Origin: Dehalococcoidia bacterium | GTDB lineage: Bacteria; Chloroflexota; Dehalococcoidia; SHYB01 | DNA length: 64,000 bases | NCBI GenBank assembly: GCA_965220155.1 | Contig: OZ244810.1 | Coordinates: 3,445,298-3,509,297, forward strand | Reading direction: 5' to 3' | Part shown: positions 19,570 through 42,737 of the stretch, in pieces | Position numbering within the stretch: the first letter of the stretch is position 1 | Layout: every line of letters starts with the position of its first letter | The notes under the pieces: model-generated | Told to the model about the DNA's origin: nothing | Databases searched by the model: none | What the model saw: only the letters and a program-made list of their open reading frames with translations | Program-made: the position numbers and the translations under genes

Positions 19570-19624
19570 AGCAGTGTCCCCTAGTCACGCATGGTAACAC
19601 AGAGGCTGCGGCCTCGGTCAGCCG

Positions 19625-20170: not shown

Positions 20171-20181
20171 GGACCGCCCTC

Positions 20182-21408: not shown

Positions 21409-21472
21409 GGAAGGGTGTAGGTGCTATCGAGTTGACGAAGGGCCACGGGGCCGCCCGTTAGGCGCTGCGCTA

Positions 21473-22690: not shown

Positions 22691-22903
22691 TCGCTCTCCC
22701 GCAGTCCTTCGGATGGGCTAAGGTGGGGCGAGTATAGCCGACGGAATTCGCCGGTAGCAAGGCAACATATCAGGTGTAGCGCCTCCGAGCATCCATAGGG
22801 CTGACGTTGCCCGCCCGCCTCATGCCAGGGTCTCGTTCCTCGAAATCGGACCGGCGTCACCGGCCCGCGTCACGGGCGTCATACAATAGGCCCCGACTCA
22901 TGG

Positions 22904-24598: not shown

Positions 24599-24734
24599 TC
24601 GGAGCCATCGGGTTTGCAGCCGCGGGACATTGGGGGTCTTTACGATCGGGTTGTGAAGAGGGGTTGTGAAAGGGTATACAATGTTTGACAGGGCAGCGGC
24701 CTGCCATGGGCAGCGCCTACCGGAAGGAGACTTC

Positions 24735-26510
24735 ATGAGGACCCGCTATTTTGTCTTGATCGCGGTTGTAGGCGTGTTGGCCATGATTGTGAGCGCGTGC
24801 GGCGGCGGGGCTGATCCAACGGCCGTACCCACGGCCGTGCCAACGGCGACCCCGAGACCGACGGCAGTCCCGCCGACTGCCACGGCGATGATGATGGAAC
24901 AGCCCGACGCGACGGCAACCCCCCAACCCACGGCTACGCGGCCGCCAGTACCCACGGCGACTCCGACGGTGGTCCCGACGGCAATGCCGGCTGGGCCCCC
25001 AGTGAAGCGGGGCGGCACCGTCCGCTTTAACATGACGTTCGATCCCGCCACCCTGGAAGTCACCAAGGTCGAGACCTACACGGTCTTCTTCCAGCTGGAC
25101 GAGATATGGTCCAACCTGGTCCAGTACAAGTCTGACTTCTACACCCAGGTGGAGTTCATCGGCGACCTGGCAGACCGATGGGAAGTCAACGACGCCGGGG
25201 ACAAGTACACCTTCTTCATGAATCCCAATGCCCGCTGGCAGAACCTACCACCTCTGAACGGGAGGAAGATCACTTCCGCCGACGTCAAGTACGGCTACGA
25301 GCTGTTCAAGGACGAGGAATACAAGAGCCAGATGAGAAGCAGGCTCAGGGCGATCGACAGTATCGACACCCCGGACGACAGTACGCTCGTGCTGAACCTG
25401 ACAGAAGCGGCCAACAACGTGCTGTTCGATCTCGCCTGGCCCACGCTCAAGATCCACGCAAGGGAGGTGGTTGATCAGGGCCTGATCGGGACGGAAGAGG
25501 GGCTCATCGGAAGCGGGGCCTTCATCTTCCAAGAGTGGCAAAAGGGCAGCGTCATCAAAATGGCGCGCAGCACGAACTATTGGCGGGACGGCTCAGATGG
25601 TAGCGCGCTCCCGTATCTCGATTCCATTGAGTCGATCATCGTGGCTGATCCCATAACCATCTCGGCCGCCCTGGGAACAAACAAGTTGGACTTCGCGAAT
25701 ATCACGGGAGTCAGGAAGTCACAGGCCGAGCCGCTGTTCGAAAACACATCGGTAGAGGTCATTCCCGGGCACAGCGGGAGTGTCCGAATCCTGTGGATGA
25801 AGCATGACTACGAGCCCTTCTCCCATAAGCTGGTGCGCCAGGCGATCTTGAAGGCCGTCGACCCCGCCGAGATCAAGAAGGCCGCACTCGAAGCGGGAGA
25901 TATGCCGCTGGAGAGCTTCGTCTACTCGACGGCGGGAGACAAGCAGCTATCCCAAGAGCGGCTCGCAGAGATCCAGAAACAAGACTTCCCGGCTGCCAGA
26001 GCGCTTCTTGCGGAGGCGGGCTTCGCCGACGGCTTTGACTTGGAAATCATCGCCCAAGGGAATACGTCGCCGTCGCCCGAGATTCTCGCCCTAGCGCAAC
26101 AAAATCTCCAGGAGATAGGGCTCAGGGTCGACATCCTGCCCCTGAGCACTGGCGACTTCGGCGCCCGCAGATCAAATCTGAACTTCCAAATGTACTCGGG
26201 CTCGCTGAATCTTCAGGCTGACCCGGTATCCCAGCTAGGGAGTCAGTTCCGCACGGGCGCAGGAAGAAACTATGGAGGTTTCTCGAGCGCCGAGGCAGAT
26301 CGCCTGATGGACATGGCCAAGGCGGAGTTCGACCAGGCGAAACTCAAGGACCTCCTGCACCAGGCCCAGGAGGTCCTGTGGGACGAAGTGCCGGGCATCC
26401 CCCTTTCCCCTGGGCCCTCCTACCAGGTCCAGGCGGTGTACTTGAAGGGCTTCAAGAACAACTTCGCCTGGGGCAACCAGGGGCTGAAATTCGCCTGGCT
26501 GGACAAATAG
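24735..26510 (+). CDS. ABC transporter substrate-binding lipoprotein, family 5 (tandem paralog 1)
   Basis: Start ATG 24735 with GGAAGGAGAC RBS; signal peptide plus lipobox VSAC; about 80% identical to 26691 gene. Confidence 0.85.
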   Translation: MRTRYFVLIAVVGVLAMIVSACGGGADPTAVPTAVPTATPRPTAVPPTATAMMMEQPDATATPQPTATRPPVPTATPTVVPTAMPAGPPVKRGGTVRFNMTFDPATLEVTKVETYTVFFQLDEIWSNLVQYKSDFYTQVEFIGDLADRWEVNDAGDKYTFFMNPNARWQNLPPLNGRKITSADVKYGYELFKDEEYKSQMRSRLRAIDSIDTPDDSTLVLNLTEAANNVLFDLAWPTLKIHAREVVDQGLIGTEEGLIGSGAFIFQEWQKGSVIKMARSTNYWRDGSDGSALPYLDSIESIIVADPITISAALGTNKLDFANITGVRKSQAEPLFENTSVEVIPGHSGSVRILWMKHDYEPFSHKLVRQAILKAVDPAEIKKAALEAGDMPLESFVYSTAGDKQLSQERLAEIQKQDFPAARALLAEAGFADGFDLEIIAQGNTSPSPEILALAQQNLQEIGLRVDILPLSTGDFGARRSNLNFQMYSGSLNLQADPVSQLGSQFRTGAGRNYGGFSSAEADRLMDMAKAEFDQAKLKDLLHQAQEVLWDEVPGIPLSPGPSYQVQAVYLKGFKNNFAWGNQGLKFAWLDK

Positions 26511-26535
26511 CGGCATCGACTCGCTGAGCGGACCC

Positions 26536-26563
26536 AAGAGGGGCGGTCGTAGACCGCCCCTCT
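26536..26563 (+). terminator. Terminator-like hairpin (duplicated with SBP gene; lacks T-tract)
   Basis: agaggggcggtc/gaccgcccctct perfect 12-bp stem; followed by CGCGTTCGC not U-tract. Confidence 0.4.
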
Positions 26564-26690
26564 TCGCGTTCGCACCTGGGCCGCGACCCCTGGCGGGGAC
26601 GGCGAAAAGGTCCGGGAGTTGACAGAAGCGAACACCGGCACTAGATTATCGTCGACTCGGCACCGAAAGTGCCTATCGGAAGGAGACGCC

Positions 26691-28463
26691 ATGAAGATGC
26701 GATATTTTGCGTCCGCCGCGCTCTTGGGGGTGTTGGCCCTGATTGTGAGCGCGTGCGGAGGGGGGGCTGATCCAACAGCCGTACCCACGGCCGTGCCAAC
26801 GGCGACCCCGAGACCGACGGCAGTCCCGACTGCCACGGCGATGATGGAAAAGCCCGACGCGACGGCAACCCCCGCACCCGCGGCGACGCGGCCGCCGGTG
26901 CCTACGGCGACTCCGACCGTGGTCCCGACGGCAACCCCGGCTGGACCCACGGTGAAGCGCGGCGGCACCATCTCCTTCTCCATGCCAACCGACCCCGCCA
27001 CCCTGGAAGTCACCAAGGTCGAGACCTACACCGTCTACTTCAACATGGACGAGATATGGTCCAACCTGGTCCAGTACAAGTCTGACTTCTACACCCAGGT
27101 GGAGTTCATCGGCGACTTGGCCGACCGCTGGGAAGTCAACGAAGCCGGGGACAAGTACACCTTCTTCCTCAATCCCAATGCCCGCTGGCAGAACCTACCA
27201 CCTCTGAACGGCAGGAAGCTGACCTCCGCAGACGTCAAATGGAGCTTCGAGCTCTACTTGGATACGGACTACGCGAGCCAGATGCGCAGCCGGGTTGCCG
27301 CGATCGACACCATCGACACCCCCGATGACACCACGGTGGTGCTGAACCTGACGGAACCCGCCAATAACGTGCTGTTCGATCTCGCCTGGCCGACACCAAA
27401 GATCCAGGCCCGGGAGCTGATAGATCAAGGCCTGATCGGGTCGGAAGAAGGGCTCATCGGCAGCGGACCCTTCATCTTCCAGGAATGGCAAAAGGGCAGC
27501 GTCGTGAAGATGACGCGGAGCACCAATTACTGGAAGGACGGCTCAGACGGCAAGGGACTTCCTTACGTCGATGCCTTGAATGTATTGGTCATTGCCGACC
27601 CTCAGACGGTATCGGCCGCCCTGCGGACGGCGAAGTTGGACTTCGCGAATATCGTCGGTGTCTCTACACGGGCGCAGGCCGATCCTCTCAGCGAGATCGA
27701 TGGGCTGTCGGTTATCCCCGGGCACCCAGGGAGCATCCGGGTCCTGTGGTTCAGGCATGACTATAAGCCTCTCGACAACAAACTGGTGCGCCAGGCCCTG
27801 CTAAAGGCCCTCGACCCCGTGGCCATCAAGAGGAACGCCCTTGCCTCGCCGGACATGCCGCTGGAGAGCTTCGTCTACTCGACGGCGGGAGACAGGTCGC
27901 TGCCCCAGGAGCGCCTCCTGGAGATCCAGGGCGTAGACGTCCCGGCTGCCAGGGCCCTTCTGGCAGAGGCGGGCTTTTCCGATGGCTTCAAGATCGAGGT
28001 GCTCGTCCAGGGGCCCTCATCCCCGGGTCCCGAGATCGCGGCGCTGATCCAGCAGCAGTGGCAAGAGGTGGGGATCGCCGTGAGCATCGCGGCTCCGACC
28101 CAGTCCGTTTTCATTCCCCGCCGACGAAATGGGGACTTCCACGTCGCCTCCACCTTCCTGAACCTTCAGGCTGATCCTGTGGCCCAGCTAGGGACTCAAA
28201 TGCGCACGGGTGCGGGCAGGAACTACGGGGGGTACTCCAATCCCGAGGCCGATGCTCTCATGGACAAGGCCAAGGGGGAGTTCGACCAGGCGAAACTCAA
28301 GGAGATCCTGTACCAGGCGCAGGAGGTCCTTTGGGAGGATGTGCCGGCCATTCCCATGTCCCAGGGGCAGTCCTTCCAGATCCAGTGGGACTACCTGAAA
28401 GGCTTCAAGAACAACTTCGCTTGGGGCAACCAGGGGCTGAAATTCGCCTGGCTCGACAAATAG
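26691..28463 (+). CDS. ABC transporter substrate-binding lipoprotein, family 5 (tandem paralog 2)
   Basis: Start ATG 26691 with GGAAGGAGAC RBS; lipobox; family-5 SBP. Confidence 0.85.
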   Translation: MKMRYFASAALLGVLALIVSACGGGADPTAVPTAVPTATPRPTAVPTATAMMEKPDATATPAPAATRPPVPTATPTVVPTATPAGPTVKRGGTISFSMPTDPATLEVTKVETYTVYFNMDEIWSNLVQYKSDFYTQVEFIGDLADRWEVNEAGDKYTFFLNPNARWQNLPPLNGRKLTSADVKWSFELYLDTDYASQMRSRVAAIDTIDTPDDTTVVLNLTEPANNVLFDLAWPTPKIQARELIDQGLIGSEEGLIGSGPFIFQEWQKGSVVKMTRSTNYWKDGSDGKGLPYVDALNVLVIADPQTVSAALRTAKLDFANIVGVSTRAQADPLSEIDGLSVIPGHPGSIRVLWFRHDYKPLDNKLVRQALLKALDPVAIKRNALASPDMPLESFVYSTAGDRSLPQERLLEIQGVDVPAARALLAEAGFSDGFKIEVLVQGPSSPGPEIAALIQQQWQEVGIAVSIAAPTQSVFIPRRRNGDFHVASTFLNLQADPVAQLGTQMRTGAGRNYGGYSNPEADALMDKAKGEFDQAKLKEILYQAQEVLWEDVPAIPMSQGQSFQIQWDYLKGFKNNFAWGNQGLKFAWLDK

Positions 28464-30182: not shown

Positions 30183-31925
30183 ATGACCAGCCAGCCATCG
30201 ACACGCTTCGAACGCAATGTCCCGGTCCCAATGCGGGACGAAACGGTGCTCCGCGCCGATGTCTACCGTCCCGACGACCGTGAGCCCCATCCGGTGCTGG
30301 TGAACCGGACGCCGTATGGCAAGGATGGGGTCCTCGCGTTCCTCAACACTTATCGCGCGGCCCAACGAGGGTATGTCGTCGTCGTCCAGGACTGCCGGGG
30401 CCGGTATGCCTCGGAGGGGGACTGGTACCCCTTCCTCAACGAGGGAGAGGACGGCTACGACACGATCGAGTGGGCCGCCGCCCAGCCATGGTCCACCGGA
30501 AAGGTTGGGATGTTCGGACCCTCGTATATGGGCGTTACCCAATGGCTTTGCGCCATGGCCCAGCCGCCGCACCTAGCGACCATCGCCCCCTCGGTCACCG
30601 CATCTGACTATCACGATGGGTGGGTCTACCAGTCGGGGGCCTTTCTCTTGGGCTTCGCCCTGAGCTGGACGCTATCGTCCTTTGCCGTCTCTCAGGCCCC
30701 GAGGCTGGGGCTTGGCAGGGAGGAGACCGCCGCTCTGCAGCGGGAGCTTGTCCGCGGGGTGGAGGAGCCGGGACCTTCGTACGGCCACCTGCCGGTCAAA
30801 GACTTGCCGCTGCTCCAGCACCCCGGGCTAGCGCCGTACTACCAGGACTGGCTCGAGCATCCCTCCGAGGACGAGTACTGGAAGCGCTGGAAGGTCCAGG
30901 ACTCTTACTCCAAGATCGGAGTCCCGGTTCTCAACATCGGCGGCTGGTACGACATCTTTCTGGGCGGGACCCTGCGCAACTTCACCGGGATGCGCCTGGG
31001 CGGCGGCTCTCCGGAGGCGAGGGAGCATTCGCAACTCATCGTCGGGCCCTGGGCCCATGCGGGGGCGTTCGGCAATGTCGTCGGCGACGTGAACTTCGGC
31101 TCCGGGGCCACCGGCGTTGCCATCGGGCTCGGCGCGAGGATTGGGAAGTGGTTCGATTACTGGCTGAAGGGTGAGCGAAACGGCATAACGGACGAGCCGC
31201 CGGTCACGGTCTTCACCATGGGTGCGGGTCAGTGGAAGACGCTCGAGCGGTGGCCCGGGGCCGACGTCGAATTCGTCAAGTGGTATCTCCACAGCCGGGG
31301 CAAGGCCAACAGCCTGGAAGGTGATGGGGCCCTGACTCCGGAAGCCCCGTCCGAGGAGCAGTTCGACTGCTATCTCTACGACCCGCGCAACCCAGTCCCC
31401 ACAAAAGGGGGCGGCCTCTGCTGCAGCCCCACCATGTCGCCGGGAGGCCCCTTCGACCAGCGCCCTATCGAGAGCCGGCCCGATGTCCTCGTGTACACCT
31501 CCGGCCCTCTCGAGCGCGACATGGAGGTCACGGGGCCCCTGACCGTGAAGCTGTGGGCGTCGTCATCAGCCATCGACACAGACTTTACAGCCAAGCTCGT
31601 GGACGTCCATCCGAACGGGTATGCGCAGAACCTGGCGGATAACCTGGTCCGCGCTCGGTACCGGGAATCCGTAGAAAACCCGGTGTTCCTGGAGCCGGAC
31701 AAGCCCTACGAGTACACCATCGATCTTTACGCTACCAGCAACGTGTTCAAGGCGGGACACGCAATACGGTTGGAGATTTCGAGCAGCAACTTTCCCCGGT
31801 TCGACCGCAATACCAACACGGGGGGTCTCATCGCCAGGGAGCGGGAGACGAGGCCCGCGCTTCAGATGGTCTTCCACGACGTCCAGAGGCCGTCGCACGT
31901 CGTGCTGCCCACCGTTCCGGCGTAG
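30183..31925 (+). CDS. CocE/NonD-family alpha/beta hydrolase (X-Pro dipeptidyl-peptidase S15-like)
   Basis: VLVNRTPYGKD and GPSYMG nucleophile-elbow motifs; about 580 aa with C-terminal beta-sandwich. Confidence 0.8.
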   Translation: MTSQPSTRFERNVPVPMRDETVLRADVYRPDDREPHPVLVNRTPYGKDGVLAFLNTYRAAQRGYVVVVQDCRGRYASEGDWYPFLNEGEDGYDTIEWAAAQPWSTGKVGMFGPSYMGVTQWLCAMAQPPHLATIAPSVTASDYHDGWVYQSGAFLLGFALSWTLSSFAVSQAPRLGLGREETAALQRELVRGVEEPGPSYGHLPVKDLPLLQHPGLAPYYQDWLEHPSEDEYWKRWKVQDSYSKIGVPVLNIGGWYDIFLGGTLRNFTGMRLGGGSPEAREHSQLIVGPWAHAGAFGNVVGDVNFGSGATGVAIGLGARIGKWFDYWLKGERNGITDEPPVTVFTMGAGQWKTLERWPGADVEFVKWYLHSRGKANSLEGDGALTPEAPSEEQFDCYLYDPRNPVPTKGGGLCCSPTMSPGGPFDQRPIESRPDVLVYTSGPLERDMEVTGPLTVKLWASSSAIDTDFTAKLVDVHPNGYAQNLADNLVRARYRESVENPVFLEPDKPYEYTIDLYATSNVFKAGHAIRLEISSSNFPRFDRNTNTGGLIARERETRPALQMVFHDVQRPSHVVLPTVPA

Positions 31926-31996
31926 AGGGGTTGGGGAGCCTATGTTCGAGTTTGATGGTTACGCCGAAGCGGTAAGCCGCTCCTGGTGGGATAGAC

Positions 31997-34069
31997 TCAC
32001 TGCGCGAGATCGGTCAGAAATTCCGACGCGGGCTTGACACCGGTTACGAGGAGATGGTCCCGAGCGCGTGTGCAGGCGACGTAGAGGAGATTCCTTTCCG
32101 TGTTGTAGACCTCCTCCAGGTCTTCCACCTCGGCGATGGACTCGATGCGCGACTGGCTGGGAATGACTTCGTCATCACACGCTATGACGGCGACGGCGCG
32201 GAACTCCAGTCCTTTCGCAAGATGCATCGTGCTCACAGAGACGCCGCCATCCGTGGGGTCTAAACTCTCAGAGAGCAAACGGTGCGGGAGGCCCGCGGCT
32301 TCGATACCGGAGAGTGCGCGTTGAATTTCACCGTCAGACCGAACGAAGACCGCGGTCTCGTCCGCTTTCATCCCTCTGCCGACCAAGTCCTTTAGCCAGT
32401 CCGCCAAGCAACCTGCTTCGCCCTCGACCGTCTCCAGCACCTTTATAACGGGACGGGGACCACTGAATACGGAAACTGTCGAACGACGCTCTTCAGTGTT
32501 GCCGTCGACGTCGGCCAACTCGGGACCCAGGAGGCGGTCCGCCTGATCCCGAATCTGGTGTGACGTCCGATAGTTGATGCGCAGCGTGTGAGAGCGTCCC
32601 CGGATGTCCACCCCCAGGGTCTTCCACGAGAATGGCTGTTGGAAGATGCGCTGACCGAGGTCGCCAGCGAAGAAGAGGCTGTTGCTGCTCCCTGATCCCA
32701 GCACCGCGAGGAACCGTAGCTGGGCTACACTCACGTCTTGGGCTTCGTCAACTACCACGAAGTCGAAGGGGCGACGTTCGCTCCCCTGGAACAGTGAAGC
32801 TAGCTTGTCGTACATCTCGGGATGCGTCATGAGTCCCTTGCTTCTCAGCCCGCTCCGGATGCGTTCGAAAACCGACCAGAGCTCCCGGCGATGACCCTCC
32901 GGCAGCCGTCGTCTGCGTCCAAGGCGCAACACGTCCCGGTAGGCTTCCCAGCTCTCCAACTGCCAATCGTCCACGACCTGTTCCCATTCCGCACTCAAGA
33001 ACTGCCGGGAGAACCTGTCAGAGCCAACTTCAGCGGCGGCTTCCTTAATGAGTTGGGCTATCACTGCCGGGGGCGCCACGGCGGCGGCGCCAAGGTTCCG
33101 CCGGTACAACTGTTGGCCAATGGCGGATATGGAACGCACCTCAACCCTCTCCCCGAGCCGAGGCTCGCCGCTTATCAGGACTCGCAGCTTTGCTCGCAGG
33201 GCGTTCGCCAGGGTGTCCGAAAACGTCGTCAGCAGCACCCTGCCGTGGTCGTTGGCCCGCGCCAGATGCACTGCCCGATGTAGGGCAACCACGGTCTTGC
33301 CGGTACCAGCCGAACCCGAGACTCTGGCCGGGCCACCGAAGTCGCGCTCCACAATATCTCGCTGCGCCGGATGCAAGAATACAGACCACCTCTCCCACGG
33401 GTAGTCGAGGGCCCGAGCGAGCTCTTCGTGGCCGGACACGACCAAAAAGCGGCGTTGGGCATCCGGGTGATCGAAGGGGCCGGTTCCAGCGGGAACCGGC
33501 TGGGGCAGGGGGACCTCTCCACCGGTTGCCAACTGAAGAAGCGCTTCTGCCGCTTCCCCTGGCAGGTGACCGGCCACGTCGAGAATCGTGTCCTCGTTGG
33601 CGTGGCGGACATCGTCCAACCAATCTTGCGGGATGCCATAGCTCAGGAGGCGGCCATCGGACACGCCCGCCAGCAGGGCCGGTTTGGGAGGAGCTTCAAG
33701 CTCCCTGGTGACGTATGTCGGAACCGCGACCTCCTGGACCGTCTCCCGCACCTCGACCAACTGGGCGGCGCCCGTATTCGGATGGGTCTCGAGCCTACGG
33801 CGTTCGGCCCATCTGTAGGCGCGGTCGTGGTGATCGACATAACACAGCAGGACACTGCTCTGCGACCGGTGGACGATGACCCGCAGGTCCTGGCTGACGC
33901 GGACGGACCAGAAGTTGGGGTCCCTGGCTGTGCTCAGCCGGTGGAGCTGATGCCCGGGCTGGGCTGGATTCACCTGGAAATCGAAGGCTACGGTCTTGAC
34001 GGCCCTCTGTTCGTCTCTAGTCAGCCTGGCAAGGCTGTCGATGAAGGTGTCGGCGATGCGGAACTGCAC
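31997..34069 (-). CDS. UvrD/REP-like SF1 helicase with N-terminal RelE/ParE-like domain
   Basis: Walker A GSAGTGKT, Walker B VVVDEAQD, motif VI TMHLAKGLEF. N-terminal ~100 aa show RelE/ParE-like pattern (WSVRVSQDLRVIVHR..VLLCYVDHHDRAY). Confidence 0.7.
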   Translation of the reverse strand: MQFRIADTFIDSLARLTRDEQRAVKTVAFDFQVNPAQPGHQLHRLSTARDPNFWSVRVSQDLRVIVHRSQSSVLLCYVDHHDRAYRWAERRRLETHPNTGAAQLVEVRETVQEVAVPTYVTRELEAPPKPALLAGVSDGRLLSYGIPQDWLDDVRHANEDTILDVAGHLPGEAAEALLQLATGGEVPLPQPVPAGTGPFDHPDAQRRFLVVSGHEELARALDYPWERWSVFLHPAQRDIVERDFGGPARVSGSAGTGKTVVALHRAVHLARANDHGRVLLTTFSDTLANALRAKLRVLISGEPRLGERVEVRSISAIGQQLYRRNLGAAAVAPPAVIAQLIKEAAAEVGSDRFSRQFLSAEWEQVVDDWQLESWEAYRDVLRLGRRRRLPEGHRRELWSVFERIRSGLRSKGLMTHPEMYDKLASLFQGSERRPFDFVVVDEAQDVSVAQLRFLAVLGSGSSNSLFFAGDLGQRIFQQPFSWKTLGVDIRGRSHTLRINYRTSHQIRDQADRLLGPELADVDGNTEERRSTVSVFSGPRPVIKVLETVEGEAGCLADWLKDLVGRGMKADETAVFVRSDGEIQRALSGIEAAGLPHRLLSESLDPTDGGVSVSTMHLAKGLEFRAVAVIACDDEVIPSQSRIESIAEVEDLEEVYNTERNLLYVACTRARDHLLVTGVKPASEFLTDLAQ

Positions 34070-34098
34070 ATACTACTCCTGCTTTAGTTCCAGCGCCC

Positions 34099-35019
34099 TT
34101 AGGACACCACTTGCCAATCTTGACGGGAGGACTCGACCTGGACCAGTCTTTCTTGCACACTGTCCAATCTCTGATGTAGTGATTTCGCGTTGCGTCGATC
34201 AAAGTACTTCGCCAGATATTCCCGAGCCGCTTCTATCACGAACATGCCTACCGGACTGAGAAGCTCACCATCAGTTGAGAGGTGATCGGATTTGGGTTCA
34301 AACCCTTCGTCCTTGGGCAGCAGATGGTTTTTGATCAGATCGACCCAGTCCCCGTGGATCGCGTGGGAAGGGATCCTTTCCAAGACGGTATATGCAGGCC
34401 AGTCGAACCCGATGGCGGTGAGTTTATCTCGGAAACTACCTCCCCAGCTTCCTGTTTTCGGGTTAACCTCTGCGAGTATCACCCGTGACTGTTCGCACGT
34501 GTCGTTTATTGAATTGAGCATACTCTCTTCGATAGCCAGTTTTTCTCCACCTCTGGCCCTTATATTTCCCTGAATAATGTCGTGAAGTTCGCACTCAGCG
34601 ACGAGGCTATTCTTTACGAATCTGTCGTAGATTGCATCATCGTCTTTGAGCAACAAATATCGAAGGTTTACTGCGGATTCAATGATACATCTGTTTAATG
34701 CTTGAACTGTTTCTCCGTGCTCAATATCAGCAGATAACTTAACGACCGATAGCATGAATTTGGATATGCGGACCAGCAATCCCGCACAGATACCCTGGTT
34801 ACGGTCGAACTTGAGTGCATCTCCAGTTGTGCCCATATAAGCGGCGCTACTGACGCAAGTCAATCCGACAGCTTCTTTATATAATTCGTACACCAGCGCT
34901 CCGAATTGGCCATTTGTTCGGCACGCCTCAAGCACTTCATCGGTTACCTCTACCGGAGGTCCCACGAGGTTTTCTATGTCGTCAATAGGTTCCACTACTA
35001 CAACGCCCCTGTTATTCAA
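34099..35019 (-). CDS. Hypothetical protein, markedly lower GC than neighbours (island orphan gene)
   Basis: 306-aa ORF tightly packed between mod and helicase genes (gaps 48 and 29 nt). No recognisable family; weak Rx6H (RIPSHAIH). Confidence 0.55.
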   Translation of the reverse strand: MNNRGVVVVEPIDDIENLVGPPVEVTDEVLEACRTNGQFGALVYELYKEAVGLTCVSSAAYMGTTGDALKFDRNQGICAGLLVRISKFMLSVVKLSADIEHGETVQALNRCIIESAVNLRYLLLKDDDAIYDRFVKNSLVAECELHDIIQGNIRARGGEKLAIEESMLNSINDTCEQSRVILAEVNPKTGSWGGSFRDKLTAIGFDWPAYTVLERIPSHAIHGDWVDLIKNHLLPKDEGFEPKSDHLSTDGELLSPVGMFVIEAAREYLAKYFDRRNAKSLHQRLDSVQERLVQVESSRQDWQVVS

Positions 35020-35067: not shown

Positions 35068-37890
35068 TTACTCTACCCGGAAGACCTTCATCACCTCGTC
35101 GCCCAGGTGGTTGATGATCTTGACGGCGATGCGGCCGGTCGACGGCTTGCCAAAGGGGCGGGAGATGCCGCTGTGCAGGGTGGCCCAGGCGTCCGCATTG
35201 ATCTCGGCCTTCAGGGTGGTCTTGAGCGCCTTGTACGGGTCGCTGGCGCCTAGGAAGTAGGCGTGGCGGACGAAGAAGGCCTCCTGGTTGTAGTCGGTGT
35301 CGATGAACCAGCAGGCGATGCCGTCCGGCCCATCGCTGCGCACCTCCCCGGTGTTGGGGTGGAAGACGTCCACACCGTTGACCTTCACTTGAACCTGCCC
35401 GTCGTCGGCGTCGAGGATGTCGATATCCGGCTCTCCGAAAATGACGAACAGGTTGCCCTTACCCGTGTTCTTCAGATCGTCGGCCATGTGCAGGTCCGCG
35501 TTCATGCGGGCCTTGAGCACCGGAATGCGGCCCAGCTTCTCGAACTCCGTCGAATGGGCGTCGTAGTTGAAGGCGCAGGCGATGAGCACGTCGAATCTCG
35601 CGTCGGCGGCCTCCCGCGCCGCTTCCACCAGGTCGGGGCGGGAGACGGTGCCGAACTCCGGACCGACGAAGATGGCGGAGCGCCGCTCGGTGCCGGATCC
35701 CTCGTCTTCCGGTGTCCCTCCCTCCACGTAGCGGCCCTCGGCGCACACCAAGCGGCCCGGCCACGGCGCGAGGGAGGTGAACTCGATACGGTCCTCCCGG
35801 TGCGCCTGCTGCACGCCGGAGACCTTCAGGTTGTCGAGGATGACCTGGGCGAAGTCATACTCCCGCCCATACGCGGCGCCCGGCTCGGCGATGCGGTCGA
35901 AGGTGTCGCCGTGCTCGTCCACCTCCAGCGTCCGGTGGGGCGAGATGCTCTCGACGGTGAAGGGGCCTGCGACGCGGACCTTGCCCCGGTCCTCGTAGGG
36001 CTTGTCGTACAGGTACTCGTAGTCGGCCTTGGCGGCGATGGATGCGTCTATCTCTTTCCGCCGGGCGATGCGGGCCTGCCACCAGCTAGCGTGCGAGTCC
36101 TTTGCGCTCTTGGGCCAGGACTCATCAGCATCTCGGGGAATCTCCCACTCCTCCCATGACGTGCCCATGGCGCTGTTCAGTTTCTCCCGCAGGGGCTCGA
36201 GCTCCTCCTGGGCCGTCTCCCAGATGACGTCTATCTCGGCGTTGTTGGCGATGGCCCGCAGGGTGACGTGGGGCACCCGCTCGTAGACGAACCCCTGGCG
36301 GATGTCCCCGTAGGTGGGAGATTCCGAAGGGGCCTTGCGGGTGACCTCCGCCTCCTTGAGCTGCCCATTGCGGCTGTCGGCCAGCAGGTAGTAGGGGTAG
36401 CGGGCGCCCATGATGCGGGCGCGGGCTAGGGCCAGGGCGACGCGGGAGGTGTCGATGGTGATCCACCGCCGCCCCCACTGCTCAGCGACAAATGCCGTGG
36501 TTCCTCCTCCACAGGTGGGGTCCAGCACCAAGTCACCAGGGTCAGTTACCATGTTCATACACCGAGAGATGACCTTTGGATTAGTCTGGACAACGAAAGT
36601 CCGAGCCTCTGAGAAGCCGCTGACGGAGGTGTCTCGCCAAACATCTTGAATTGGTATAGCTAGAAAGTCGGCGAAGAACCTTTTGTAACGAAGGCTATTT
36701 CCTATTACAAACAACCGACCAGCTCTTCCCAGTCGCCTCATGCCCTCAGGCAGTGTCCGCCACCTCTGGCCGCTCGGTAGTCTGAACATTCGTTCTTGAA
36801 ACTCGAAGTTGAAAAGTGTGGTGCTCGCTGCACCAGCGGTGTATACACTCTGATGGCTGAACAGTCTGCCGTCGTAATTGTGGCCGAGCGCAGCAGCAGC
36901 GACCTCGTTGGATGTCAAAGTTCGGACATCTCCCGGGGTCGATTCAATCCACGTGTACTGGCTCGTTCCCTCTCCTCCGACCTCTTTCAACGCATAAGGC
37001 TTACGGAACTTCGCCTTCGAACGGTCTCTGGCAAACCAAAGGATGTAGTCGTTGACATTTGGCAGAAACTGCGCCTCAAGTCCCGCCGTCTTCATAAACG
37101 GGATCATATTCACGTAGTTGTCTCGCCCAAAGACCTCATCCATAAGCGCCCGGACGCGGTGGACGTTCTCCTCGCCGATCTGCACGAAGACGGAACCAGA
37201 GTCGGTGAGCAGGTCGCGGGCGACAGCAAGGCGGTCGCGCAGGTAGGTCAGGTGGGAGTGGATGCCGTCGCGCCAGGTGTCGCGGAAGGCCCTGACCTGC
37301 TCCGGCTCCCGGGTGATGTGCTCGCGGTTGCCGTCCCGCACGTCCCGGCTGGTGGTGGACCACTGGAAGTTGGAGTTGAACCGGATGCCGTAGGGCGGAT
37401 CGATGTAGATGCACTGGACCCTGCCCCGCAACCCCTCCCGCTCGGCCATCGACGCCATGACCTGGAGGCTGTCGCCCAGGACCATGCGGTTGGACCAGTT
37501 GGCGTCGTGCTGGTAGAACTCGGTCCTGGCGTCCTCGGAGGGCAGGCCGTTGAAGTCGGCGAACATGTCTGTCTGGTAGTCGCCGGAGCCATTGCCGTTC
37601 CTTGACCGGCGCACGAGGTCGTCGATGAGCGCCTTGGGATGCACCCGCTCCTGGATGTACAGAGGCGGCGCGTTGACCACCAGGTCGGACCAGTCCTGCT
37701 CGTCCTTGCCGCGCCAGACGAGCTGCGGGTCCAGGTCGCGGTTGCGCCGCTCGTAGGCGAGCCTGACCGGGCTCTGCTCCTCCTCGCGCATGAGAGGCTG
37801 GTGCTCCGCGCTGGGCAGGTTCCGGCGGGTGGACTCCTTGTGCTTAGTGGCCTCGACGGACTTGCGTTGATTGCCTCGCGCTCTGGGCAT
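35068..37890 (-). CDS. mod: N6-adenine DNA methyltransferase, beta-class (Type III Mod-like) with about 450-aa C-terminal extension
   Basis: Motif IV IYIDPPYG precedes motif I DPTCGGGTTAF (beta order), NYVNMIPF region; 940 aa. Confidence 0.8.
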   Translation of the reverse strand: MPRARGNQRKSVEATKHKESTRRNLPSAEHQPLMREEEQSPVRLAYERRNRDLDPQLVWRGKDEQDWSDLVVNAPPLYIQERVHPKALIDDLVRRSRNGNGSGDYQTDMFADFNGLPSEDARTEFYQHDANWSNRMVLGDSLQVMASMAEREGLRGRVQCIYIDPPYGIRFNSNFQWSTTSRDVRDGNREHITREPEQVRAFRDTWRDGIHSHLTYLRDRLAVARDLLTDSGSVFVQIGEENVHRVRALMDEVFGRDNYVNMIPFMKTAGLEAQFLPNVNDYILWFARDRSKAKFRKPYALKEVGGEGTSQYTWIESTPGDVRTLTSNEVAAAALGHNYDGRLFSHQSVYTAGAASTTLFNFEFQERMFRLPSGQRWRTLPEGMRRLGRAGRLFVIGNSLRYKRFFADFLAIPIQDVWRDTSVSGFSEARTFVVQTNPKVISRCMNMVTDPGDLVLDPTCGGGTTAFVAEQWGRRWITIDTSRVALALARARIMGARYPYYLLADSRNGQLKEAEVTRKAPSESPTYGDIRQGFVYERVPHVTLRAIANNAEIDVIWETAQEELEPLREKLNSAMGTSWEEWEIPRDADESWPKSAKDSHASWWQARIARRKEIDASIAAKADYEYLYDKPYEDRGKVRVAGPFTVESISPHRTLEVDEHGDTFDRIAEPGAAYGREYDFAQVILDNLKVSGVQQAHREDRIEFTSLAPWPGRLVCAEGRYVEGGTPEDEGSGTERRSAIFVGPEFGTVSRPDLVEAAREAADARFDVLIACAFNYDAHSTEFEKLGRIPVLKARMNADLHMADDLKNTGKGNLFVIFGEPDIDILDADDGQVQVKVNGVDVFHPNTGEVRSDGPDGIACWFIDTDYNQEAFFVRHAYFLGASDPYKALKTTLKAEINADAWATLHSGISRPFGKPSTGRIAVKIINHLGDEVMKVFRVE

Positions 37891-37929: not shown

Positions 37930-38349
37930 TCATTGGGCGCTGAAGGGGTCGAGCACTCGGACGCCCAACCCCTCAACGTCGGAAACGTTTCGAGTTATTA
38001 GGGTGACATCATGTACCATCGCGGTGGCGGCAAGCAGGCCGTCAACCACGGGAACCGGACGAATGGCGGATATCTGTCCCCACGTATCCGCAATCATTTC
38101 GTCGATGGGCAGGATGCGACCGGCAAAACTCAGAGCAGTTGCTCTGAGCCAGCTTTCCAGAACGTTGGTCCGCTGCGGATCACGCCTCCGTCGTATCTGT
38201 TCTATGCCTCTGCGCATCTCTCCAAGCGCCAATACGCTAAGAAATATGTCAGTTTCCTCCACCCCCGCGTACCAAGTTCTAACGTTGATGTCACAGCGGT
38301 CGCCTTTGCGGAGCTCCGAGATGACGTTGGTATCAAGCAGATATGTCAA
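37930..38349 (-). CDS. vapC: PIN-domain ribonuclease, VapC-like toxin (no cognate antitoxin gene)
   Basis: LLDTNVISE N-terminal acidic motif, conserved D/E/D, C-terminal ITRN. TTG start overlaps res stop (TTGA). Confidence 0.7.
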   Translation of the reverse strand: MTYLLDTNVISELRKGDRCDINVRTWYAGVEETDIFLSVLALGEMRRGIEQIRRRRDPQRTNVLESWLRATALSFAGRILPIDEMIADTWGQISAIRPVPVVDGLLAATAMVHDVTLITRNVSDVEGLGVRVLDPFSAQ

Positions 38350-41300
38350 AACTCAATGTCTCTCGGGAACTCGCGGGGTCGGACCAAGTACTCCTCGTCA
38401 ATGGGACAGGATGCGAGCAGCTCCTTGGCGCTCATGGCGCTATAGTCAGGGATTCCTGATTCCCTCACGATCCTCTGTATCAGGTTGTCGAACCCCGTCT
38501 CGATTTTATACACGTCCACAAACTCAGCGAAGGCCCAACGTCCGTATCGACCGAGGCCGTTGACGCCGGGAATCCAATAGGTCTCCATGGCGTCCTTCTT
38601 GGCCTTTGCGTCTTCGCCGCGGTATCCCTTGATCTCCACGACCAGATTCAATGGGTCTTCGCTGCCATCGTCTATCTGGACGATGAAGTCCGGTATGTAC
38701 GTGCGGGTTAGGGAGCCGTACTGGTAGGGCACTTCCAGACCCAGGTTGTGGTTCTTGGCGTATGCTCTCACCCTGGGGTGCGCTTCCGCCACGCGGCAGA
38801 GCTCGGCCTCCCAGTCGCTGTCCAAGATAACCCAATTGAGGTGACATTTGCGGGGGTCCGTCTCCCAGCGGCTCTCTTTGGACGTGCTGAAACTCACGTG
38901 AGCGGTCGAGCCGGTGGGATTGAAGGGATCGAGCATTGCCTTGACAGGTCGTTGGCCGGCGTGAGCGCGGATAATGGCGGCCGCGATGCGCTCGCAGGCC
39001 ATGTCGGCCAGCTCTTGATACATGAGCTGCGCCGGGTAGGCGCCGCCCTTGCAACGCAGGCTGCCGTCGAGCCATTGGCTGACTATCCCTTTCAGCTTGC
39101 CAAAGAGGTGAAGCTTTGGCTCCTCGTTCTGGTCGCGCCATTTCGTGTAGAGGAGCCGCTGGGTGAGGTGCATCAGTAGGGTTGAGCGCCGGAGGTCTCT
39201 CGTGTGCACCAAGTTGAGATCGACGCCTTCACCGATAATGCCTTGGTTCCTCGTGACGGTTGGCCCAGTGAGACCGGGCGTCAGCTCCAAGACAGAGTCT
39301 TCAGTGAACGCGGCGGTCAACTCCTCCTTGGCAAGCTCGACGCGATAACCTCGAACGCGCGGGAAGCTGATTTCCAAGGAGTCGCGGTCGGGGCGAACGG
39401 CTCTGACCTGTATGGTCCGGCGGGGCGGCTGAGGCGGCGCAACGACGGGCTTGGCCGTGAAGTCGAAGGGGATGCCAAGGACCTCGGCGTACTCGACGTT
39501 GAATAGGTCTTGATCGTTCAGGTCGTAGGACTGGCGGCGCAGCGCCCGGCCGATGACCTGCTCACACAGCAGTTGGGTCCCGAAGGCTCGGACACCGAGG
39601 ATATGGGTGACCGTGTTGGCGTCCCAGCCCTCGGTCAGCATCGAGACGGATACGACGCAGCGGATGGAGTCTCCGAGGCTATTCTCTTTGCCGACGGTGT
39701 TCATGACCTCCCTGAGAAGGTCTTGGTCGGGGATGTTGCCGGCCTGGACCTGATCGCCGCTGCGTTGTTGTCTCTCCCGGCGGAACCGCTCGATTTCAGG
39801 AGCGGCGATAGTCCGGAAGTTCTGGTCCAACGCGTCGCCGGACTCGAGCTGTTCGCTGTCTATCAGCAACGTCCGAGGACGGGGCAGATGGTTGCCGTAT
39901 TCGTCGAAGTTGCGGAACAGCTCCAGCCGACCGTTTTCGAGGGAGCTCGAGCCGTCTTCGTTCTCGCGATGAAAGCCCGAGATGTAGTCGTAGACCAGCT
40001 TGGAGGTGGCCGTGTTGTTACAGACGACGATGAAGCACGGTGGGACCGGCACGTCGGCCTGGCGCCACAGATCGAAGGTCTTCTCGTAGTGCCCGTAGAG
40101 CGCCTGCAACGCCGTCTGAAGCTTGGTGGGGATCTCGAGGGGATCGAGATTCTTGGATTTACCGCGGCCCTTCCGCGGCATTTCAGGACGAATATTCTCC
40201 CATAGGGCGCGGAAGGTGGGCATGTCCCCGCCTGGGATGTTGTCGGATACAGGCACGCGCGGCAGCTTGACGATGCCGCACTCGATGGCGTCCATCAGGG
40301 AGAAGTCGTTCACCGTCCAGGGGAAGAGCGTACCCTCGGCATAACCCGAACCGCGCAGGAAGAAAGGCGTTGCGGACAGGTCGATGACCTGCTGGATGCC
40401 CAACTTGCGCTTGACGATTTCGAGTCCTGAAATCCAAACACGGGCCTCTTCGGTGTTCTTTTCGGCCTCTCTCCTGTCTTCACCTTTCAGCGTTTCCTCG
40501 TCATCCTCACCCGGCTTGCGACGGTAGCAGTGATGCCCTTCGTCGTTGAGCACCAGGACGTTCTTGATGCCCATGAGCTCCGGCATCACCCGCTGGACCA
40601 TCTGGCCCTCGGTCTCGATGGTGTTCAGCTCGGGGCCTCTGCCCTGGAGGAGGGCGCGGCCGCCACCGGAGACAGCCAGGACCTCTCGCAACTTGAAAGC
40701 ATGAAAGTTGGTAATGACGATCCTGGCCTTGCCGAGATCGTCGAGCATGTCCGCTGGAACCAGCTCACGACTTGCGTAGTAGCTGTCCGGGTCGTTAGGT
40801 TGCAGGACGCGCAGACGGTCCTTGATGGTGATGCCAGGGGCGACGACGAGAAAGCCGCGGGTGAACTTGCTACTGTTTGGACGCCGGACCGCGTTGATGG
40901 TGTGCCAGGCGATGAGCATCGCCATGACGGTGGTCTTTCCGGTGCCCGTCGCCAGCTTGAGAGCCAAGCGCATGATCTCAGGGTTAGCTTCCGTATTCGC
41001 CGCCTGGAGATTGTCCAAGAACCGCCGCCCTGTCGGCCTCAACTTCGGGGCGACCTCAGTAAGCCAGATGACCGTTTCCGCCGCCTCAATCTGGCAGAAG
41101 AAGGGACGCAGGCTGCTGAAGCTGTGGTGCCGCCAGTGTTGCAGCAGCCGAGCGGTCTCGGGCGTGACGCCCCAGTCGTTCGAACTCGGAATGGCCCGCC
41201 AGGCGTCCACCTGCTGGCGGATGCCGTTAACAACGGCTGTAGTGGCCTCGTATTGCTGGTGCTCAGTCGATAGCCCTTTGCCTTCGTCAAACACGAAGCC

Positions 41301-41474
41301 CCGCTGAAGCGCCCTGCGCTTGCGCGGCTTTGGGATTGGCGTGATGAATTCCGCCTTGCGTCGATAGTCGACTATCTGTTGCGTCGGCTGGCCCTGGGCA
41401 TCCAATTCCCAGTGCCTCTTTGGATACTCATAAGGGGAGTTCAGTATGGGACTGTCGAAGAATCGCTCTTCCAT
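38346..41474 (-). CDS. res: Type III restriction endonuclease Res-like subunit (SF2 helicase plus C-terminal PD-(D/E)xK nuclease)
   Basis: Walker A TGTGKT, DEGHH (DEAH-like) motif II, C-terminal PDF..VVEIKGY (D..ExK) motif; N-terminus typical of T3 Res. Confidence 0.8.
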   Translation of the reverse strand: MEERFFDSPILNSPYEYPKRHWELDAQGQPTQQIVDYRRKAEFITPIPKPRKRRALQRGFVFDEGKGLSTEHQQYEATTAVVNGIRQQVDAWRAIPSSNDWGVTPETARLLQHWRHHSFSSLRPFFCQIEAAETVIWLTEVAPKLRPTGRRFLDNLQAANTEANPEIMRLALKLATGTGKTTVMAMLIAWHTINAVRRPNSSKFTRGFLVVAPGITIKDRLRVLQPNDPDSYYASRELVPADMLDDLGKARIVITNFHAFKLREVLAVSGGGRALLQGRGPELNTIETEGQMVQRVMPELMGIKNVLVLNDEGHHCYRRKPGEDDEETLKGEDRREAEKNTEEARVWISGLEIVKRKLGIQQVIDLSATPFFLRGSGYAEGTLFPWTVNDFSLMDAIECGIVKLPRVPVSDNIPGGDMPTFRALWENIRPEMPRKGRGKSKNLDPLEIPTKLQTALQALYGHYEKTFDLWRQADVPVPPCFIVVCNNTATSKLVYDYISGFHRENEDGSSSLENGRLELFRNFDEYGNHLPRPRTLLIDSEQLESGDALDQNFRTIAAPEIERFRRERQQRSGDQVQAGNIPDQDLLREVMNTVGKENSLGDSIRCVVSVSMLTEGWDANTVTHILGVRAFGTQLLCEQVIGRALRRQSYDLNDQDLFNVEYAEVLGIPFDFTAKPVVAPPQPPRRTIQVRAVRPDRDSLEISFPRVRGYRVELAKEELTAAFTEDSVLELTPGLTGPTVTRNQGIIGEGVDLNLVHTRDLRRSTLLMHLTQRLLYTKWRDQNEEPKLHLFGKLKGIVSQWLDGSLRCKGGAYPAQLMYQELADMACERIAAAIIRAHAGQRPVKAMLDPFNPTGSTAHVSFSTSKESRWETDPRKCHLNWVILDSDWEAELCRVAEAHPRVRAYAKNHNLGLEVPYQYGSLTRTYIPDFIVQIDDGSEDPLNLVVEIKGYRGEDAKAKKDAMETYWIPGVNGLGRYGRWAFAEFVDVYKIETGFDNLIQRIVRESGIPDYSAMSAKELLASCPIDEEYLVRPREFPRDIEF

Positions 41475-41594
41475 TTCAACCGACCTCGCGAGCGCTATTC
41501 GTCATTCTCACCCGAAACCAACGACCCGCTTTCTCCAATGCATCAATATCGGGCTTCGGGACCCAAGCCGCCTTTTGAAGAGGGGTTGGGGAGC

Positions 41595-42737
41595 CTACCC
41601 CGCGGCCCCGAGCCCCAGGGCGCCGCGGACCTCTTCGGCTACGAGGTAGGCGGCGGTGCGCTCGGGGGCGTCTCCCATTCTCAGGAGGTTCTTGGTGAAG
41701 CCTACCGCCAGGCCGGTATCCGGGTCGGCGAAGCCGATCGAGCCGCCAGCGCCCGGGTGACCGAATGCCCCGGGCGGGCCCATAGCGGAGAGGGCGCCGC
41801 CACCCAGGAAATAGCCCATCCCTTTACGAGTGGGCTGGCCGATGACCACGTCCAGCTCGTCGGTCTGGAATGTCCGGGCGGTCTCGACCCGGTCGGCGGT
41901 CAGCAGCCGGGCTCCCCCCAGGGCCCCCGCGCCGGCCAGCATCGCATAATGCCGGGCGATGCCCCGGGCGCTCATGATTCCTCCAGCCCCGGGGATGGAG
42001 GCGCGGCGAACATCGGGACGGTTGAAGATTTTGCCGGCGGTGGTGACGGCCCGAGGGATCGCCCGCATGAGAAGAGAATCAGGGGCCGGCGGCGGCGCGT
42101 CCGGCGGCGGCGGGGCGTTCCGAAGAGTGGCCACCCTGCCCTCGACCGTGTCAGGGATGCCGAGGTACAAGCCTTCGATCCCCAGGGGTCGGCATATCTC
42201 GTCCTGCACAAACTGTGAGATTGGCCTGCCGTCGATTCGCCGGACGACCTCCCCGAGGACCCAGCCGAAGGTGTAGCCGTGGTAGCCGGTCTTGGTGCCG
42301 GGCTCCCAAAGGGGCTCCATGGCAGCCAATGCCTGGCACATTCCGTTCCAATCGCACATCATCTCCGGGGTGGCGCCGTCCGGCATCTGAGGAATCCCGA
42401 TCCGATGAGTCAGGCCGTCTCGCACGGTGGCCCGGTGTTTGCCGTTCTGTCCGAACTCCGGCCAGTATTCCTTGATTGGCGTGTCATACTCCAAGCGGCC
42501 GCGGTCGGCCAGCATGTGGATGCAAGTTGCCGTGATTCCCTTGGTCGTCGAGAACACCGTGAAGAGGGTCTCTCCGTCCACGGGGCGGCCCGTGTCCTGA
42601 TCCGCAAGCCCCGCCCAGGCATCGACAACGAGCTCTCCATCAAGGTAGGCGGCGGCTTGAAGCCCCATCTCCTCCCCGGACTCCACCAGCGTTTCGAGCA
42701 CTATTCTTACCCGTCGGGTCGCCTGTTCATCCACCAT
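41595..42737 (-). CDS. Beta-lactamase-family serine hydrolase
   Basis: S-x-x-K motif FSTTKG, class C/esterase-like length. Confidence 0.75.
   Translation of the reverse strand: MVDEQATRRVRIVLETLVESGEEMGLQAAAYLDGELVVDAWAGLADQDTGRPVDGETLFTVFSTTKGITATCIHMLADRGRLEYDTPIKEYWPEFGQNGKHRATVRDGLTHRIGIPQMPDGATPEMMCDWNGMCQALAAMEPLWEPGTKTGYHGYTFGWVLGEVVRRIDGRPISQFVQDEICRPLGIEGLYLGIPDTVEGRVATLRNAPPPPDAPPPAPDSLLMRAIPRAVTTAGKIFNRPDVRRASIPGAGGIMSARGIARHYAMLAGAGALGGARLLTADRVETARTFQTDELDVVIGQPTRKGMGYFLGGGALSAMGPPGAFGHPGAGGSIGFADPDTGLAVGFTKNLLRMGDAPERTAAYLVAEEVRGALGLGAAG

Follow-up and report, generated by a model that had tools for sequence, protein, structure and literature searches.

The window analysed here is the whole of a 64,000-nucleotide stretch of the genome of a Dehalococcoidia bacterium (SHYB01; GenBank assembly GCA_965220155.1, contig OZ244810.1, positions 3,445,298 to 3,509,297). 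Our subject is a gene on its minus strand for a 690-residue protein in which a predicted RelE/YoeB-like head is joined to a UvrD-type helicase of superfamily 1 (SF1). The gene is the last of a block that also encodes the Res and Mod proteins of a Type III-like restriction-modification (RM) system, and we think it highly probable that the helicase is a third component of this system, resembling the ArmD protein of the ARMADA II defence system. The features on which the argument depends, with the evidence for each, are as follows.

31997..34069, minus strand: RelE-like/UvrD-type helicase (ArmD-like), 690 residues (open reading frame, ribosome-binding site, Pfam, PADLOC and NCBIfam helicase matches, ArmD homology)
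33800..34069, minus strand: predicted RelE/YoeB-fold domain, residues 1-90 (AlphaFold2 models, Foldseek against the PDB, hmmsearch and hhalign with YoeB, cross-clade alignment)
33752..33799, minus strand: beta-hairpin extension LExHPxTGAAQ, residues 91-106 (secondary structure of the model; conservation)
33380..33751, minus strand: flexible linker, then a small helical region, residues 107-230 (local confidence and DSSP of the full-length model; conserved motifs)
32000..33379, minus strand: SF1A helicase core, residues 231-690 (translation, Pfam, structural matches, motif conservation)
35068..37890, minus strand: Mod, a 940-residue beta-class N6/N4 DNA methyltransferase (Pfam N6_N4_Mtase, PADLOC MTase_III, motifs)
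38346..41474, minus strand: Res, a 1042-residue superfamily 2 (SF2) ATPase with a C-terminal nuclease motif (NCBIfam NF046055, Pfam, motifs)

The helicase and its RelE/YoeB-like head

The open reading frame (ORF) of the helicase has 690 codons and a stop, and the ORF list and the translation both place it at 31997-34069 on the minus strand; the original prediction did not specify a strand. It starts with GTG at 34069, has a Shine-Dalgarno sequence AGGAG at 34076-34080, 6 nt upstream, and ends with the stop codon at 31997-31999. The peptides quoted in the original prediction, which was made from the letters of the window and its ORFs, are all found in the translation: FRIADTFIDSL (residues 3-13), WSVRVSQDLRVIVHR (54-68) and VLLCYVDHHDRAY (73-85), and further on GSAGTGKT (252-259), VVVDEAQD (438-445) and TMHLAKGLEF (614-623). 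The gene is real and intact and the observation is far beyond chance, as homologues of about 690 residues number in the thousands and the N-terminal domain belongs to its better-conserved regions (about 75% identity in fragments, against about 66% for the whole protein).

The helicase part is a complete SF1A enzyme of the UvrD/Rep/PcrA type, just as had been predicted. Pfam UvrD-helicase (E 3.4e-17) and UvrD_C (E 2.3e-19) both exceed their gathering scores, and the nearest solved structures are those of PcrA, UvrD and Rep (E 1e-17 to 1e-14). The motifs are Walker A GSAGTGKT (252-259), motif II DEAQD (441-445), motif III GDLGQRI (469-475), NYRTSHQI (499-506), motif V TMHLAKGLEF (614-623) and motif VI VACTRAR (664-670), all of them invariant in an alignment of 119 homologues. 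PcrA, UvrD and Rep being the best similarities in NCBIfam as well as in the PDB, one could take the protein for a paralogue of a housekeeping UvrD/PcrA-type repair helicase with an accessory domain. However even the highest scores against NCBIfam equivalog models fall 10-20 times short of the cut-offs (PcrA, the best, 64.9 bits against 911, and HelD 52.9 against 419), so by sequence it is no orthologue of a housekeeping helicase. Such a role also fits badly with the patchy, horizontally transferred distribution, the plasmid copies, the strict linkage to RM genes and the position of the block between two convergent metabolic genes, all discussed below, and we find it scarcely credible. The region that joins core and head is predicted to be flexible at residues 110-125, where the predicted local distance difference test (pLDDT) of the full-length model is below 50, and its helical part has conserved LLxxGxP and LPxEAxEAL motifs.

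With regard to the head, the original prediction claimed a RelE/ParE fold for about residues 1-100, and at the level of fold the modelling supports it. The AlphaFold2 model of residues 1-110 has a mean pLDDT of 88.9 and a predicted template modelling score (pTM) of 0.82, and its order of elements, beta-alpha-alpha-beta-beta-beta-beta followed by a helix and an extra beta-hairpin, is of the RelE type; the full-length AlphaFold2 model gives the same picture of the domain. DSSP assigns strands to residues 2-5, 42-44, 53-57, 62-68 and 72-80 and helices to 7-14 and 18-33, with a pLDDT of about 90. Foldseek found 26 matches in the PDB at E <= 1e-3, nearly all of them toxins of the RelE superfamily. 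The top matches are YoeB, RelE and YafQ, with a probability of 1.00 and template modelling (TM) scores of 0.66-0.75, normalised on the toxin (for YoeB 2a6r, E 1.1e-5 and TM 0.71), and M. tuberculosis RelE/RelK, Thermus RelE and archaeal RelE are also among them. ParE2 matches less well (TM 0.55). The modelled head is thus of the RelE/ParE superfamily, and with TM scores of 0.66-0.75 against 0.55 it is closer to RelE, YoeB and YafQ than to ParE. Cami1, a CARF-RelE protein seen on the 70S ribosome (8phj, 8phb), is further down the list, outside this cut-off, with E 2.3e-3.

Many homologues are already named “mRNA-degrading endonuclease RelE” by the JGI pipeline, which is the RelE COG name, and neither PADLOC nor NCBIfam has a model for the N-terminal domain. 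The domain-architecture search that had been proposed was run with a profile of this domain and gave 3035 clusters of representatives; among the 150 listed all were close relatives or fragments, and no new architecture was found. The beta-hairpin extension is specific to this helicase family, P97 being invariant and T99 and Q103 nearly so, also in the ArmD clade that we come to below.

Association with Res and Mod, and the relationship to ArmD

Res matches NCBIfam NF046055, “BPTD_3080 family restriction endonuclease”, with 1335 bits against a cut-off of 800, and Pfam ResIII and RE_endonuc. Its motifs are GTGKT at residue 177, DEGH at residue 311 and PD...ExK (PDF...EIK) at residues 928-949; the models for classical Type III Res proteins match it weakly (E 1e-6 to 1e-4). 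Mod matches PADLOC MTase_III (PDLC03632) over its full length with 1357 bits, and has DPPY at residue 164, a GGG S-adenosylmethionine (SAM)-binding motif near residue 460 and a variable central region. By its catalytic and SAM-binding motifs it is a Type III beta-class enzyme. The pair is therefore like the classical Type III systems EcoP15I and EcoP1I in its beta-class Mod with DPPY and variable centre and in a Res that combines an SF2 ATPase with a C-terminal PD-ExK motif. It is unlike them in that the order is res-mod instead of mod-res, in the weak matches of Res to the Type III models, and in having a conserved third gene, that for the RelE-helicase, and internal slots for cargo genes.

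A scan of one genome per species gave at least 512 relatives of the helicase, distributed over nearly every bacterial phylum, and 80 loci, with identities of 59-66%, were kept for analysis of context. The block has a standard order on one strand, with Res first, then the Type III-class Mod, then 0-9 variable genes and the helicase last. There is a same-strand gene of the Mod family upstream of the helicase in 57 of the 62 loci with at least 3.5 kb of upstream sequence, usually with a gene of the Res family before it. The window Res and Mod are respectively 65-76% and 60-82% identical to their counterparts in the other loci. The three-gene block is found also on plasmids, in Pseudomonas avellanae and Rhizobium, that of P. 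avellanae (p1NCPPB4222, 18967-27027) being without cargo. GenBank phages gave no full-length homologue of the helicase and IMG/VR only 8 contigs with one, and scans of the block for promoters and terminators did no better than on shuffled sequence.

The original prediction was of an effector typical of phage defence, and this needs to be divided. A defence role is plausible, as the gene is in an RM operon and its homologue ArmD contributes to ARMADA II defence, but the protein is not autonomous, its gene being conserved as the last in an operon of the order Res-Mod-[cargo]-helicase. The nucleic-acid sensing that was also ascribed to it, and any toxin activity, are a matter of inference. One could argue for an autonomous abortive-infection or toxin-antitoxin-like effector that is beside a restriction system merely through clustering in defence islands: the head has a toxin fold, the PADLOC helicase models that match are for GajB, which is a sensor helicase, and there are other stand-alone defence genes in the same block. 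However the order and strand relative to Mod are fixed in those 57 loci, across many phyla. Mod and helicase genes are directly adjacent in 19 of the 57, with gaps of -3 to 157 nt, the stop of one and start of the other often overlapping or abutting. In Mantel tests on the 19 complete loci the helicase co-varies with Mod (0.60, p 0.001) and Res (0.55, p 0.002) as strongly as Mod does with Res (0.53), and the three core genes stay while the cargo changes. Independent action is for these reasons improbable.

More distant BPTD_3080 systems, in cyanobacteria (Res identity 45%), Rhodococcus (39%) and Sphingobium (33%), do not have the helicase, so it marks one RM clade and not defence islands in general, which again goes against an autonomous effector. 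The third gene after Mod on pAQ5 of Picosynechococcus PCC 7002 was considered as a possible counterpart, but is unrelated to this helicase. We conclude from the comparison of loci that the helicase is no chance neighbour, but a third gene by which one clade of Type III-like restriction systems is defined.

For each of Res, Mod and helicase, identity is about 60-75% over nearly all bacterial phyla, Patescibacteria, Spirochaetota, Chloroflexota and Actinomycetota among them. Conservation to this degree is unusual in a defence system, and suggests that the genes are often transferred horizontally and are strongly constrained.

Within known defence systems GajB of Gabija is comparable in being a UvrD-type SF1 defence helicase, and its model gives the best PADLOC match (PDLC00132, 96 bits). 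However the match is partial, covering the core only, GajB is without a RelE head, and the window block has no gene for GajA (OLD/ATPase-Toprim).

ArmD is much closer. ARMADA type II consists of ArmA (SNF2/BrxHII-like), ArmB (a PglX-like methyltransferase), ArmC (a YprA-like helicase) and ArmD (Bell et al., bioRxiv 2025, PMC12458937), and for ArmD the architecture of RelE-like head and helicase has already been published (PMC12458937). On an E. coli plasmid there is a block of SNF2, methyltransferase, DEAD-helicase and helicase genes, and the window protein is 32% identical to the product of the last one (E 2e-97), the alignment being collinear over residues 5-686 and thus including the RelE-like head, the HPxTGAxQ hairpin and the linker. 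Homologues with 30-38% identity are present in an ARMADA-type context in plasmids of Thermus, Nostoc, Microvirga and Haematobacter also. The two proteins share a RelE-like head, the hairpin, a helical linker and a UvrD-type core over their whole length, and in each case the gene stands at the end of an operon with genes for a DNA methyltransferase and an SF2 ATPase. The sequences place the window helicase in a sister clade of ArmD.

The partners are different. ARMADA II has an SNF2 helicase, a PglX-like methyltransferase of about 1600 residues and a YprA-like helicase-nuclease of about 2100, in contrast to the Res of about 1040 residues with its PD-ExK nuclease motif and the beta-class Mod of about 940 residues in the window. 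The window block is not an ARMADA II locus, as the ORF list has no SNF2 or YprA-like gene in the block. Our literature search found nothing on an ArmD-type helicase paired with a Type III-like Res and Mod, or on the cargo slots, and “BPTD_3080” in no paper. A RelE-helicase fusion is not in Makarova et al. 2009 (PMC2701414), where the word “helicase” does not occur, and Makarova 2013 and the polyvalent-protein paper have nothing relevant. The architecture is thus known from ArmD and the pairing with Res and Mod is absent from the searchable literature. What is new here is that an ArmD-type RelE-helicase has been recruited to a Type III-like restriction system.

Possible function of the head

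The catalytic residues of YoeB we take to be Glu46, Arg65, His83 and Tyr84. In the window protein R57, R63 and H81 align without gaps with Arg59, Arg65 and His83 of YoeB, hmmsearch and hhalign being in agreement on this. Among 119 close homologues H43, H67, H80, H81 and Y85 do not vary, and R57, R63 and D82 scarcely do. Comparison with the ArmD clade is more discriminating, as over the aligned N-terminal 260 residues its sequences are only 30-42% identical to those of the RM-linked clade. In the first 106 residues only S55, R63, I65, H81, D82, A84, Y85, W87 and P97 are invariant across both clades, with R57 nearly so. ArmD lacks two residues that never vary in the RM-linked clade, H67 and H80. 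Position 43 lies in strand 2. The RM-linked clade has His there, and so does Thermus, but the four remaining sequences of the ArmD clade have Glu, the residue that is thus commonest in ArmD. H/E43 would correspond to Glu46, the general base of YoeB, and Y85 to Tyr84, both being assigned by strand register. The conservation pattern of the head fits a preserved acid-base RNase site, though it is no proof of one.

The head is thus like the mRNA interferases YoeB, RelE and YafQ in its predicted fold and in R63 and H81. It is unlike them in being fused to a motor of about 600 residues, in its extra beta-hairpin, in scoring under the family thresholds and in having no antitoxin gene: nothing small of that kind is beside the helicase gene, with Mod abutting it in the 19 loci mentioned above and the downstream genes not being conserved. 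Cami1, an ancillary nuclease of type III CRISPR systems, also has a RelE fold, in its case that of an RNase, within a larger defence-system protein. However the sensor of Cami1 is a CARF domain that binds cyclic oligoadenylate and not a helicase, and apart from the RelE fold the sequences are unrelated.

We favour, with a good deal of reserve, the view that the RelE-helicase is a third, conserved component of a Type III-like RM defence operon, with a tethered head that would be a latent endoribonuclease under control of the motor and would provide a block at the level of RNA. For the part of this view that makes the head an active RNase effector, taken by itself, the chance seems to us a little less than even. 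Several observations weigh against one or other part of it. The head reaches no gathering threshold of a RelE-type Pfam family, PF05015 (HigB-like_toxin) coming nearest with 20 bits against 27 (E 0.001); PF05015 is matched by 6 of 10 diverse family members at E <= 0.05, the best at 5.9e-5. The hhalign alignment covers only 31 residues, 51-81 of the head on 53-83 of YoeB, at 56% probability, and comparison of profiles with E. coli RelE gave no alignment; a sequence-profile search of the PDB gave marginal matches, YoeB having E 1.3. The mapping of position 43 on Glu46 is presumed from strand register and not from superposition. The domain is only mildly basic, less so than classical RelE (mean pI 7.35, range 5.6-9.75, against 5.46 for the rest of the protein), although the pI of a domain is not decisive. 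The physical association of the helicase with Res and Mod is one that we infer from genomics alone.

The experiments on ARMADA II are also relevant. In a BL21-AI plasmid system deletion of armD or the Walker A change K266A abolishes defence, and the Walker B change D454N reduces it (PMC12458937). In native enterohaemorrhagic E. coli the effect of armD deletion is weaker than that of the other arm deletions, and growth of the armD deletion strains without phage is unchanged (10.1101/2025.09.22.677730). ARMADA II protection is direct, with no growth arrest or loss of viability (PMC12458937), and a simple suicide-toxin reading fits poorly with such non-abortive protection. Both studies mutated the ATPase motifs only and left the RelE-like residues untouched (PMC12458937; 10.1101/2025.09.22.677730). 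These last two points must also be counted against a catalytic head, and the absence of growth arrest in particular speaks against a strong toxin that shuts down translation in this relative.

The strongest competing explanation gives the RelE-like domain no catalytic role. It would be an adaptor that docks the helicase on Res and Mod, RNA polymerase, the ribosome or nucleic acid, and the protein would act on DNA alone, as a motor for processing the products of restriction or for resetting Res-Mod complexes that have stalled. The non-abortive character of ARMADA II defence and its dependence on the ArmD ATPase are as one would expect for such an adaptor, as are scores below the RelE family thresholds and the loss in ArmD of H67 and H80. 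W87 and the hairpin specific to the family show the same degree of conservation as the putative catalytic residues, which is what an interface would give. However the residues kept between clades with overall identity of about 32% are those aligned with the catalytic Arg and His of YoeB, together with the C-terminal Tyr, and position 43 alternates between His and Glu, both possible general bases, which is unexpected for a mere contact. It is this pattern that inclines us to catalysis, and we rate an adaptor as rather unlikely, though to be taken seriously.

If the head is indeed a latent endoribonuclease, we envisage that the helicase works with Res and Mod on invading DNA, perhaps by loading at nicks, ends or stalled complexes made by restriction. 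The tethered RelE/YoeB-like domain, with its equivalents of Arg65 and His83 of YoeB and a His or Glu at the presumed general-base position, would be restrained, either inside the protein itself or by the complex. The ATP-driven motor would then release or position it to cut RNA, either mRNA bound to ribosomes or transcripts on the target DNA, and the outcome would be an RNA-level block on top of DNA restriction. Access to the ribosome is conceivable, given the flexible linker at residues 110-125 and the precedent of Cami1, a large RelE fusion that acts on the 70S ribosome.

PrrC, associated with EcoprrI, is an anticodon nuclease kept latent by a Type Ic restriction system, and is an example of an NTPase-linked RNase within an RM operon that may give a second line of defence. 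The likeness is one of logic only: the folds are unrelated (an ABC-type ATPase with an anticodon nuclease, as against an SF1 helicase with RelE), and PrrC is tied to a Type I system, the window helicase to a Type III-like one. The clade described here places an ArmD-type helicase in a much simpler system of three genes, Res, Mod and helicase. This would be a tractable setting in which to ask if restriction of DNA and cleavage of RNA can be linked, and what keeps an RNase of toxin fold under control when there is no antitoxin.

Cargo slots, block boundaries and surroundings

Two further genes of the window block, and the repeats that bracket it, are as follows.

34099..35019, minus strand: DUF5677 protein, 306 residues, cargo in the slot between Mod and helicase (Pfam PF18928, E 1.6e-13; GC profile)
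37930..38349, minus strand: PIN-domain (VapC-like) protein, 139 residues, cargo in the slot between Res and Mod (ORF list; Pfam PIN, E 2.4e-14)
31924..31942, no strand assigned: right copy of the perfect 19-bp direct repeat AGAGGGGTTGGGGAGCCTA (repeat search and blastn)
41579..41597, no strand assigned: left copy of the same 19-bp direct repeat (repeat search and blastn)

The DUF5677 gene has a GC content of 0.50, against about 0.58-0.66 in neighbouring 1-kb windows, and its product has no match in PADLOC or NCBIfam. The start of the PIN ORF overlaps the stop of Res by 4 nt, and no separate antitoxin ORF for it is visible at the Res-Mod gap. The last 40 or so residues of Res (38346-38500, the 3' end of the gene) are unlike those of a close relative, and this differing C-terminus might be the remnant of a fused antitoxin.

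The slot between Mod and helicase is filled in 38 of the 57 loci, by 1-9 same-strand genes that fall into 76 sequence clusters, and that between Res and Mod has inserts in 14 of 36. By Pfam and PADLOC the cargo between Mod and helicase includes SIR2 with HerA, IetA with an S8 protease (IetA E 2e-74), PtuA of Septu (2e-134), a UG10 reverse transcriptase, an AEP-RT fusion, PD-Lambda-5, Fic, Mrr/NERD nucleases and OLD/GajA-like ATPases, and many further cargo genes are unannotated. With recognised defence proteins and many unannotated genes in the slots, the invariant boundaries at the end of Mod and the start of the helicase are possible anchors for mining new defence genes.

Two metagenomic strains, with helicases 96% and 94% identical to that of the window and the same chromosomal neighbours, are informative on the rate of change. 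Both have MNT and HepT in the Res-Mod slot; in the Mod-helicase slot the first (L088) has three different genes and the second a DUF5677 gene interrupted by an insertion sequence. DNA homology between the window and L088 stops exactly at the Mod stop codon (35068) and resumes exactly at the helicase start (34069). We interpret this as cassette-like exchange of cargo at gene boundaries, with fast turnover. Mod also varies, as its central part (36595-37120, minus strand), which lies between the DPPY and SAM motifs, has no DNA similarity to Mods that are otherwise 91-95% identical. This is the presumed target-recognition region, and the difference suggests that the window Mod has a recognition sequence different from that of its close relatives.

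Taking function and cargo together one can imagine restriction at two levels in one complex, with Res and Mod cutting unmethylated DNA and the motor delivering or unlocking a RelE/YoeB-type RNase against transcripts, in an operon that is also a mobile carrier with two slots that exchange complete defence systems at gene boundaries. We offer this full combination tentatively, and think it on balance unlikely to hold in every part.

Extra genes are found in some related blocks too. Among ARMADA II blocks, that of a Thermus plasmid (L083) has an NYN-domain gene and two opposite-strand ORFs embedded in it, and that of a Haematobacter plasmid (L087) has one ORF; the RM-type block of a Rhizobium plasmid (L085) has inserts in both slots. 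Carriage of cargo may thus be a habit shared by operons that end in this helicase.

The 19-bp repeats bracket the whole Res-PIN-Mod-DUF5677-helicase block, and the repeat holds the stop codons of both convergent flanking genes. In a close relative (L089) these junctions carry direct repeats of 290 bp that are 98% identical (673-962 and 12208-12496). The comparison indicates that the block as a whole was inserted between two metabolic genes in convergent orientation, and no recombinase, integrase or transposase gene is present inside the window block. The flanking repeats, the plasmid copies and the 60-75% identity across phyla give the block a mobile look, and with a RelE-fold domain that has no antitoxin gene one might propose an addiction module, in which the head is a toxin that stabilises the block after loss and the helicase body or Mod is the antidote. 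However toxin and antidote cannot decay at different rates when they are covalently linked, RM pairs are already self-stabilising, and armD deletion strains grow the same without phage (10.1101/2025.09.22.677730), so we consider addiction very improbable.

Downstream of the block, at 24666-28463 on the plus strand, there are two tandem paralogous genes for SBP_bac_5 solute-binding proteins of 614 residues each. The copies have about 79% DNA identity to each other in relative L088, and amidohydrolase and S15 peptidase genes adjoin them; the region looks like ordinary peptide-uptake metabolism.

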